Source: a virus (Duplodnaviria; Caudoviricetes). From it: 64,000 nucleotides of DNA. Made by a program: the position numbers and the translations under genes. The stretch covers positions 64,001 through 128,000 of the IMG/VR virus record IMGVR_UViG_3300050156_000143. One strand, given 5' to 3'. Below are positions 1,319 through 3,577 of the stretch, piece by piece. The notes under the pieces were generated by a model. The model saw only the letters and a program-made list of their open reading frames with translations, was not told the origin of the DNA and ran no database searches. Numbering within the stretch: the first letter of the stretch is position 1; each line of letters starts with the position of its first letter.

Positions 1319-1582
1319 TCACTCATAGGGCGATTCACCCGTCAAATGCGGTTGAGCAAACCATAGCTTAAACCAAGCTGGCGTCCCTGGTTTAATATTG
1401 TGTTTACGCTGATACTCAGCTTTATCATTTTGTTGGACAGCATAAGTAGTCACTTTGTTAGTGCCAGCTAGCCGTTTCAAGTCATCGAGTGAAGTGTCTT
1501 TTTCAGGTAGTTCTACAGGTTTGAGTGTGTTTGCTGCAAATCGCTTCATGATTTCAGCCTGTTTCCAAGGATCAAAGCTCAT
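1319..1582 (-). CDS. Hypothetical protein (87 aa)
   Basis: ORF track; overlaps stop of upstream gene by 4 nt; LDDLKRLAG and IKPGTPAWFKLWF motifs. Confidence 0.75.
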   Translation of the reverse strand: MSFDPWKQAEIMKRFAANTLKPVELPEKDTSLDDLKRLAGTNKVTTYAVQQNDKAEYQRKHNIKPGTPAWFKLWFAQPHLTGESPYE

Positions 1583-2507: not shown

Positions 2508-2513
2508 TATTTA
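2508..2513 (-). promoter_or_regulatory. Late promoter TAAATA, 5 nt before ATG
   Basis: Overlaps the stop codon of the 2511..3128 gene. Confidence 0.7.
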
Positions 2514-3128
2514 ATCTACATTTCTCAAACATAGAAATTCACGAGCAAATGCCTTTTCCCCGAGAAAGTGCATCAACGCAAACAACTTGTCTGGCGTAAT
2601 AGGTTTATGTTGAATAGCATCGATCGTCAATGTTGGTGGCAATGTGTTTACAAAATCTGATTTACACGGAGCTGACCCGACTATCGCCACATTTCCTTGA
2701 CTGCGCAGTATATTATATTGATGCTCAGTTATTTTCACTGAATCGAGTATAGTCAATGTTAAGTTGCCGCCAGCGCCACTCAATCCGCTCATACCGTAGT
2801 TATAATAAATCTGCGACCCATTGCCCAAATGCGTCACGCCAGTGGTCATTCTGATAATGGAGAATGGTTCTAGAAATCCCTGGAACTCCCGAGTATATTG
2901 GCCGCCGCCATGTTTGCTATCGCGAATTGCCACCCGAGTGTGCGGATTCTCACTTGCAAACTTTGCCGCAACGTATGCCACAGCGGTAGTTGCACCCATC
3001 ATACGATAGCAATCAACAACTGGATTTTCAACATTGAGGAGATGGTCTATTAGAAGTTGTTGTTCATGGCGTGGCACAAAGTTGATTGGCCCGGTGCGGG
3101 TCATGATGGTTGGATTTTGGCAAAGCAT
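2511..3128 (-). CDS. Degenerate terminase-ATPase-like protein (no nuclease domain)
   Basis: Collinear with TerL ATPase motifs: PRHEQQLL/FEYQREL, RMMGATT/RQGGKTT, LGNGSQI/FDNGSRI, ILDSV/YCDEL, IVGSAP/IITSTP, LGEKAFAREFLC/LGDGRFEREMNC. Confidence 0.7.
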   Translation of the reverse strand: MLCQNPTIMTRTGPINFVPRHEQQLLIDHLLNVENPVVDCYRMMGATTAVAYVAAKFASENPHTRVAIRDSKHGGGQYTREFQGFLEPFSIIRMTTGVTHLGNGSQIYYNYGMSGLSGAGGNLTLTILDSVKITEHQYNILRSQGNVAIVGSAPCKSDFVNTLPPTLTIDAIQHKPITPDKLFALMHFLGEKAFAREFLCLRNVD

Positions 3129-3134
3129 GGTCGC

Positions 3135-3150
3135 ATTTTACTGCTATAAT
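3135..3150. promoter_or_regulatory. Back-to-back sigma70-type -10 elements (TGcTATAAT on +, TAAAAT on -)
   Basis: 29-bp divergent intergenic gap; -10 boxes lie 7 and 6 nt before the two ATGs; no SD. Confidence 0.55.
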
Positions 3151-3157
3151 TGCCCGT

Positions 3158-3577
3158 ATGAAAAAACATATCCTCACATTTGCTCTCACGATGCTAGCCA
3201 CGTTGAGTCACGCTAACCCGTATTCTTGGCCTGTTGTGAAAGTTATCGATGGCGACACCGTTCAACTCAAAGTAACCTTGTTACCTGAACTTGGGGATCA
3301 CTTGAGTTTACGAATATATGGAATTGACACGCCGGAAAAGGGGTTTCGCGCAAAATGTGACAAAGAAGCTGCGCTAGGAAAACGTGCTACGGAATACACC
3401 ACCAATGCGGTTGCACGTGCCAACAAACGTGAAATCATCGTGAGGGAATGGGACAAATACGGCGGGAGAATTTTGGGAGATTTGGTACTGGACGGGAAAC
3501 AGTTAAGAGACATGATTATTGCCGCTGGACTAGCCCGTGAATACTACGGTGAAAAGAAAAGTGACTGGTGCAAATGA
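3158..3577 (+). CDS. Thermonuclease (SNase-like) with signal peptide
   Basis: VIDGDT, LRIYGIDTPE, DKYGGRILG, GLAREY motifs; N-terminal MKKHILTFALTMLATLSHA. Confidence 0.9.
   Translation: MKKHILTFALTMLATLSHANPYSWPVVKVIDGDTVQLKVTLLPELGDHLSLRIYGIDTPEKGFRAKCDKEAALGKRATEYTTNAVARANKREIIVREWDKYGGRILGDLVLDGKQLRDMIIAAGLAREYYGEKKSDWCK

Follow-up and report, generated by a model that had tools for sequence, protein, structure and literature searches.

A stand-alone, apparently catalytically inert paralog of the TerL ATPase domain encoded near the terminase gene of a large phage

Introduction

Why would a phage encode, close to the gene for its large terminase (TerL), a second protein that resembles the TerL ATPase domain and appears to have lost its catalytic residues? 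The question is raised by an open reading frame (ORF) of 205 amino acid residues at 2511–3128 on the minus strand of a 64,000-nucleotide stretch of DNA from an uncultured phage. This stretch (hereafter, the window) comprises bases 64001–128000 of the 277,516-bp IMG/VR virus record IMGVR_UViG_3300050156_000143, which has direct terminal repeats. We call the ORF P0001 and give positions in window coordinates unless stated otherwise. An initial annotation, made from the letters alone, had described it as a dead terminase paralog and a possible decoy or packaging regulator. Our analysis, based on the intact ORF, hhalign and MAFFT alignments, shuffle and genome-wide controls, ESM Atlas, and codon usage, identifies P0001 as a stand-alone, catalytically inert paralog of the TerL ATPase domain. 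A decoy or regulator role is plausible, and our best guess is a binding-only TerL mimic made before the late genes.

Between 2022 and 2026, the bacterial proteins Avs1–3 and Upx became known to sense the TerL fold, and Avs2 and Upx to need its ATPase domain only. Because these proteins sense the fold, and two of them need the ATPase domain alone, a pre-late, ATP-blind copy of TerL would be a concrete candidate to act as their decoy. Another possibility is that such a paralog was forced to lose ATP binding in order to stay invisible to the sensors. Should P0001 serve instead as a cofactor of packaging, it would have implications for how packaging starts in jumbo phages without a recognizable small terminase.

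Similarity of P0001 to the TerL ATPase domain

The real TerL of this phage is encoded at 2–1285 on the minus strand; the window holds its N-terminal 428 residues (525 in the genome). It matches Pfam Terminase_6N (1e-17) and T4 gp17 (1.6e-37), and its intact Walker A (RQGGKTT) and Walker B (LYCDE) motifs and motif III (TST) align to those of T4 gp17. P0001 lies 1.2 kb upstream of it on the same strand, with an ADP-ribosyltransferase (ART) gene and a small gene, orf87, in between.

BLASTP of P0001 against this TerL gave no significant match. Searches of Pfam, PHROGs, NCBIfam, and PDB sequences returned zero matches, with no Pfam Terminase match at E ≤1, and a search of the whole genome with PF03237 (Terminase_6N) found only the true TerL, P0001 remaining below the gathering score. 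Alignment with hhalign to a profile of 79 TerLs placed residues 12–200 of P0001 collinear with TerL 56–280, with 23% identity over 186 columns (P 0.015 local and 4e-4 global; E 0.011). MAFFT aligned P0001 with the TerLs of its own clade in the same register, with 23–25% identity. The hhalign score was reached by 1 of 200 shuffled versions of P0001, and the longest shuffle alignment covered 102 columns, against 186 for the real protein. Among 192 ORFs of the genome, a domain-length alignment to TerL was unique to P0001 (z about 3.6), and 13 unrelated ORF families beside TerL in related phages scored at most 18.6 over at most 51 columns. The sequence-level likeness is real but weak.

ESM Atlas, whose evidence is independent of our own alignments, pointed to the same domain. 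Its feature search scored P0001 at 0.97 to Terminase_6N clusters, with 195 of 256 features in common; when the terminase families were excluded, the next best score was 0.94, with 162 features in common. The ESM Atlas model of P0001 (predicted template modelling (TM) score, pTM, 0.84; predicted local distance difference test, pLDDT, 0.80) aligned over residues 1–205 with ten Terminase_6N clusters at TM scores of 0.79–0.85. The motif-by-motif likeness to the TerL ATPase domain claimed in the initial annotation was therefore borne out by the collinear hhalign and MAFFT alignments, by their controls, and by a TM score of up to 0.85.

The annotation had proposed a structural alignment to gp17. The fold-level match to Terminase_6N was obtained, at the TM score of 0.85 just given. 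Foldseek of an AlphaFold model of low confidence against the PDB gave no match at E ≤0.001, with T4 gp17 on top at 0.08. A VIA wide search with a TerL-seeded AlphaFold model ranked D6E TerL first (Z 8.4), with T4 gp17 at 6.3 and P74-26 at 6.2; since the model was seeded with TerLs, its PDB matches are not independent of the TerL alignment.

The statistics above are modest (hhalign P 0.01–0.02, no match to a hidden Markov model, HMM), and helicases and SRP GTPases occur among the low-Z structure matches. Such observations would suit a generic degenerate P-loop protein, helicase-like or otherwise ASCE, whose likeness to TerL is coincidental. We regard this as very unlikely. The alignment is collinear from end to end and includes TerL-specific motifs outside the P-loop, namely the Q motif, NGS-x-I, and LG-x3-F-x-RE-x2-C. 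In ESM Atlas, the top matches by feature and by structure all belong to Terminase_6N, and the score drops from 0.97 (195 features) to 0.94 (162) without them. Furthermore, TerLs (D6E, T4, P74-26, HK97, and Sf6) head the PDB lists for P0001, though the model behind these lists is poor and used the TerL alignment. P0001 very probably has the TerL fold.

Loss of the catalytic residues and of the nuclease domain

The alignments show which parts of the ATPase domain have been kept. The Q motif is retained (HEQ23 in P0001, EYQ67 in TerL). The Walker A motif is degenerate: RMMGATT (residues 42–48; 2985–3005, minus strand) aligns by hhalign and MAFFT to R86-Q-G-G-K90-T-T of TerL and, through the phage's own TerL, to SRQLGKTT of T4 gp17, so that the P-loop arginine, glycine, and threonine are retained and Ala46 takes the place of Lys90. 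The Walker B motif is likewise degenerate. LTILDS (residues 125–130; 2739–2756, minus strand) aligns to VLYCD179-E180 of TerL; within I127-L-D129-S130-V, compared with Y177-C-D179-E180-L, Asp129 is kept and the catalytic glutamate is replaced by Ser130. The initial annotation had claimed both the replacement of the Walker A lysine (RMMGATT vs RQGGKTT) and the loss of the Walker B glutamate (ILDSV vs YCDEL), and the alignment confirms both. The motif III equivalent is altered (GSAP, residues 151–154, for TSTP in TerL; 2667–2678, minus strand), and a segment of about 22 residues that follows motif III in TerL is missing from P0001.

The helix that closes the ATPase domain is kept: LGEKAFAREFLC (2529–2564, minus strand) aligns to LGDGRFEREMNC at TerL 269–280, the end of the ATPase domain. 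P0001 stops 5 residues past LGEKAFAREFLC, at the linker between the ATPase and nuclease domains, and the next gene encodes an ART-PolyVal protein. The nuclease domain is absent, as had been stated.

The equivalents of the Walker A residue Lys166 and of Glu256 are indispensable for ATP hydrolysis in T4 gp17, as its genetics show. From its sequence, P0001 is predicted to be incapable of acting as a normal ATPase or nuclease. Because the Walker A lysine, the catalytic glutamate, and the nuclease domain have been lost, P0001 could act only by binding.

Integrity and distribution of the gene

P0001 starts with ATG and runs through its 205 codons with zero internal stops, which upholds the claim of an intact frame at 2511–3128. 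By codon usage, it scores a log-likelihood of 0.186 per codon, which places it at the 40th percentile among the genes of the genome (mean 0.203, standard deviation (sd) 0.084), while the other five frames of the locus range from −0.04 to 0.05. Its G+C content is 0.448, compared with 0.449 for the genome. Pieces of the locus, some of them covering parts of P0001, occur in contigs of four other leaf-litter or freshwater metagenomes at about 95–100% identity, and indels are not among the differences listed. We infer that the frame has been kept open by selection and is not decaying neutrally, because 205 codons remain open at 23% identity to any TerL, a divergence at which Pfam does not detect the protein.

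Three other metagenomes have contigs that break within P0001, at 2924. For one freshwater run, the 83 letters left of this point (2841–2924, residues about 69–96) could not be aligned at ≥80% identity, and 30 letters in frame read YRAYVGDQY where the window has RDSKHGGGQY. The segment 2841–2924 looks like a diverged in-frame allele patch.

P0001 is an orphan in every collection searched. No homolog was found by tblastn against the INPHARED phages, by pattern scans of IMG/VR and the JGI metagenomes, or in a search of 5.8e9 clusters; phmmer against 1.84e9 protein representatives yielded no homolog either, its only two matches being repeat-protein artefacts. As relatives of this phage we used 80 IMG/VR loci with TerLs 58–64% identical to its own. 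The initial annotation had named absence from relatives as a point against its proposal, and neither tblastn nor phmmer --max detected a P0001 homolog in any of the 80 loci. No second TerL-like gene was found in five large related contigs or in PA5oct with PF03237, a model that would miss P0001 too.

The relatives share their gene order with this phage to either side of the gene, with vWA, orf221, orf98, DHFR, and thyA on one side and a gene for a 127-residue protein, orf87, TerL, and the genes downstream on the other. In the relatives, the interval between thyA and TerL contains spanins, a gp9/10-like baseplate gene, the 127-residue gene and two small genes, and a methyltransferase. In 33 of the 80 relatives, the gp9/10-like gene lies just upstream of the 127-residue gene, which is the slot of P0001. 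Two relatives, L008 and L012, carry the SNase gene at the position that it has in this phage, and there the gp9/10-like gene comes next, in place of P0001; among the related loci, only these two have SNase there. Because synteny holds on both sides and the slot of P0001 is taken by the gp9/10-like gene in relatives, P0001 and the ART domain are a lineage-specific replacement in a variable slot. P0001 is accessory, not core. The gp9/10-like family (about 180 residues, 33 relatives) was considered as a positional ortholog of P0001 and rejected, being unrelated to P0001 or TerL.

The orphan status of P0001 and its position in the sole variable slot of an otherwise syntenic region also suit a relic, an N-terminal remnant of a terminase gene, either duplicated or foreign, that arrived with the ART domain and has not yet been broken. 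The lost catalytic residues, the lack of a Shine-Dalgarno sequence, and AlphaFold runs that were not confident point the same way. However, the frame has stayed open despite divergence past Pfam detection, the codon usage and G+C content are fully native, and the truncation falls exactly at a domain boundary. A −10 hexamer stands before the gene at the exact spacing found in eight other genes, the ESM model is confident (pLDDT 0.80), and the near-identical pieces in other metagenomes list no indels among their differences. We consider a relic unlikely.

Start signals and expression class

The late genes of this phage have a characteristic start. TAAATA begins at position −10 of the ATG in 22–23 genes of the genome, and TAAATA-N4-ATG is a leaderless late-promoter layout. 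TerL is preceded by TAAATA and then a leader with a Shine-Dalgarno sequence. The ART gene is preceded by a late-type TAAATA (2508–2513, minus strand) that contains the stop codon of P0001 and ends 5 nt before the ART codon Met11 (2502). P0001 has neither a late TAAATA nor a Shine-Dalgarno sequence upstream. It has TAAAAT, a sigma-70-type −10-like hexamer (3135–3140, minus strand), 6 nt before its ATG, from which a leaderless mRNA is expected.

The hexamer belongs to a position-enriched class. Among 33 TAnAAT hexamers found within 60 nt upstream of ORFs, 7 have their first base at precisely −12 and a further two at −13. The resulting nine genes have TAnAAT, often TGnTAnAAT, 6–7 nt before the ATG and no Shine-Dalgarno sequence; they encode a DNA primase (phrog_47, 6e-32), a phosphoesterase, the SNase-like neighbour of P0001 (TAnAAT-class element at 3145–3150, plus strand), a truncated Gp23-like protein, P0001, and four unknowns. 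TAnAAT-N6-7-ATG appears to be a second, sigma-70-like promoter class fused to the start codon. The presence of the primase in this class suggests that it is pre-late. The annotation's reading of the P0001 start signal as a sigma-70-type −10 (TAAAAT at 3140–3135) rather than the late TAAATA was thus sustained, the layout being common to eight other genes and both TerL and the ART gene being of the late type.

The truncated Gp23-like protein is a capsid paralog of 284 residues encoded outside the window (genome positions 176460–177314), with TGCTATAAT-N6-ATG as its upstream region. It matches Pfam Gp23 in part (28 bits, profile positions 235–321 of 376).

An early-type promoter class together with an accessory distribution would also suit a weapon against co-infecting phages or satellites, in which an early mimic poisons the terminase or portal of the competitor, a form of superinfection exclusion acting at packaging, or a protein that reuses the fold to bind something else. 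Packaging interference directed at the terminase is known; examples are a prophage defence blocking the assembly of virions (PMC10884400) and a satellite able to manipulate the packaging motor. However, a mimic built on the phage's own type of TerL would risk poisoning the motor of this phage itself, and we judge this use of P0001 improbable.

Comparison with known truncated terminases and a possible role in packaging

Proteins of this kind have been seen in other giant phages. Buttimer et al. (2017) reported a "truncated large terminase" in Rak2-like jumbo phages, which they called unusual and to which they gave no function; such proteins have also been reported for phiM12 and phiN3 (PMC5259590). 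The Rak2-like proteins (CBB_274 and Serratia phage BF gp272, for example) are, like P0001, ATPase-only TerL paralogs beside an intact TerL, 229–238 residues long. Their Walker A lysine is replaced by a hydrophobic residue (GHRxxG[IL][TS]), their P-loop arginine is retained, and they end at the same boundary as P0001. Unlike the orphan P0001, they form a conserved family (7 clusters, 34–48% identity) whose relation to TerL is clear by profile (E 3.5e-13). Gp272 of phage BF (236 residues) overlaps the start of TerL by 11 nt, and the CBB copy overlaps it as well, whereas P0001 lies 1.2 kb from TerL behind two genes. Against the Rak2-like profile, hhalign aligned 104 columns of P0001 at E 0.19, which does not improve on the match to TerL.

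A second family is represented by Sinorhizobium phage Phosso, in which the "terminase small subunit" (XYS97501.1; PV764938.1, 249808–250653) is a TerL ATPase paralog. Its family comprises 5 clusters of 281–284 residues from 470–480-kb phage contigs, with 49–100% identity; the Phosso protein is 49–84% identical to the four other clusters. These proteins are ATPase-only, have lost the lysine (RxMGI[ST]) and the catalytic glutamate (ADN), and share the C-terminal boundary of P0001, and their R-x-M-G-[AI]-T resembles RMMGAT of P0001. They differ from P0001 in an extra N-terminal region of 60 residues and in their location, which is close to the capsid gene and 52 kb away from TerL. P0001 matched the Phosso-like profile at hhalign E 0.025 over 177 columns, a score reached by 4 of 200 shuffles. 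The Phosso-like and Rak2-like families are TerL-derived and mutually related (hhalign 7e-19, 3.5e-13, and 3.7e-14).

Since the profile E values of 0.025 and 0.19 are no better than the 0.011 obtained with TerL, P0001 is not a demonstrable member of either family. By its motifs and boundaries, it is of the same kind as the Rak2-like and Phosso-like truncated TerLs, a kind already known but uncharacterised in giant phages. Stand-alone, ATP-dead copies of the packaging ATPase thus recur, in Rak2-like phages, in Phosso-like phages, and now as an orphan in a clade related to PA5oct. Our literature search found no functional study of a pseudoenzyme or truncated large terminase and no paper describing a terminase decoy.

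Two T4 proteins were also compared. P0001 shares the predicted fold and the motif order of the T4-type TerL ATPase domain (gp17 N-domain, PF03237; PDB 2O0H and 3CPE), but it differs from this domain in lacking the Walker lysine and glutamate, the nuclease, and a late start signal and in staying below HMM thresholds. T4 vs.8 (NP_049732, 219 residues) is, like P0001, a small stand-alone TerL-ATPase-like protein of a pre-late region; it is published as resembling the TerL ATPase domain in structure, and it activates EcAvs2 (Evans 2026, PMC13601566). Its Walker A (GKS) and Walker B (DE) motifs are intact, and P0001 has neither. As an ortholog of P0001, vs.8 was rejected (hhalign E 0.42 over 25 columns, not significant).

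The known families bear most directly on a role of P0001 in packaging. A packaging cofactor or regulator would bind the phage's own TerL, the portal, or DNA and tune motor assembly or the nuclease. It might do so as a ring subunit without catalytic activity, as a substitute for a small terminase, or as a dominant-negative brake. This may be how the conserved truncated terminases of the Rak2-like and Phosso-like phages operate. In Serratia phage BF and CBB, the TerL paralog without the lysine overlaps the start of TerL (PMC5259590), and the Phosso family, encoded close to the gene for the major capsid protein, is conserved at identities as low as 49%. P0001 retains the P-loop arginine as both families do and lies on the same strand as TerL, 1.2 kb upstream. 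In addition, a search of the 277-kb record for a T4-type small terminase (Pfam PF11053) found none. On the other hand, relatives should retain a component of the packaging machinery, and P0001 is absent from 80 of 80 relatives whose TerL is about 60% identical; its start signal is non-late while that of TerL is late; it cannot be placed in either conserved family (E 0.19 and 0.025); and the segment of about 22 residues after motif III is missing. A packaging role is possible, but we lean against it.

A proposed TerL mimic aimed at host sensors

The reading that we tentatively place first is that P0001 is a non-activating TerL mimic aimed at host terminase sensors, although its lead over a role in packaging is small and it may well prove wrong. 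P0001 would be a lineage-specific, stand-alone pseudo-ATPase derived from a T4-type TerL ATPase domain, retaining the fold and the shape of the P-loop and acting only by binding. It would probably be transcribed by a host-type RNA polymerase before the late genes, as a leaderless mRNA from TAAAAT-N6-ATG, and would be present in the cell before the real terminase. As a mimic, it would occupy a TerL-binding partner, more likely a host sensor of the Avs1–3 or Upx type than the phage's own packaging machinery, and would be bound without triggering it. We infer the timing of expression, any binding, and the identity of the partner. This reading is favoured because P0001 is accessory and fast-diverging, carries a pre-late signal, adjoins an ART domain of a conflict type, and shares its promoter type with a truncated capsid paralog.

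Work on the sensors is consistent with a mimic of this type. The TerL ATPase domain is by itself enough to trigger EcAvs2 and Upx, and EcAvs2 contacts TerL-bound ATP via a bridging ATP (PMC13601566). Because EcAvs2 reads the ATP bound by TerL, a TerL fold without ATP could bind the sensor without activating it.

Several observations weigh against a sensor mimic. SeAvs3 additionally contacts the nuclease domain of TerL and residues of its active site (PMC13601566). P0001 lacks both, and their loss would suit the avoidance of recognition no less than a decoy. The only stand-alone TerL-like protein tested, T4 vs.8, activates Avs2 instead of blocking it (PMC13601566), and the Rak2-like truncated TerLs, which sit directly on TerL, point to packaging rather than defence. 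The −10 hexamer of P0001 has no TG extension and no good −35, and a promoter scan of the region found 6 sites against a shuffle expectation of 4.9 (sd 2.1), which is not an enrichment; for both reasons, the timing of P0001 expression can be put forward only as a proposal. Among the public runs listed for the locus, none was of RNA. AlphaFold models of P0001 were of low confidence (pLDDT 39 from the single sequence, 44 from a TerL-seeded alignment), and because of this the fold assignment rests on ESM Atlas and the profile alignment.

An extension of the sensor-mimic reading takes in the truncated Gp23-like protein. P0001 and this capsid paralog would be catalytically dead or assembly-incompetent versions of the phage's two main immune signature proteins, both made pre-late from the same promoter class, and would pre-load Avs/Upx sensors with non-activating mimics. 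We regard the extension as improbable; if true, it would represent a new principle of counter-defence, the decoying of sensors that read protein folds.

Neighbouring genes

The ART gene downstream of P0001 (1579–2532, minus strand; 1579–2502 if Met11 is the start) encodes 317 residues and matches ART-PolyVal (Pfam PF18760, 8.8e-16). Among phage homologs of its ART domain, no link to TerL-like neighbours was found. In this gene, the ART-PolyVal domain is joined in frame with a domain that the relatives encode as a gene of its own, of 127 codons; residues 202–304 match the 127-residue family, which comprises 41 ORFs of related loci. By analogy with T4 Alt, the product may be a virion-borne, injected ART.

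Directly upstream of TerL, orf87 (1319–1582, minus strand) is a small gene of 87 codons that is kept in the relatives, as the comparison with related loci showed. It is a member of a large viral family without an assigned function.

On the other side of P0001, the divergent SNase-like nuclease gene (3145–3577, plus strand, including its start signal; Pfam SNase, 1.3e-9) is preceded by TGcTATAAT, 7 nt before the ATG at 3158. Beyond it lie thyA and then a DHFR gene. The nuclease ORF itself (3158–3577, plus strand) begins with an N-terminal segment resembling a signal peptide, MKKHILTFALTMLATLSHA.

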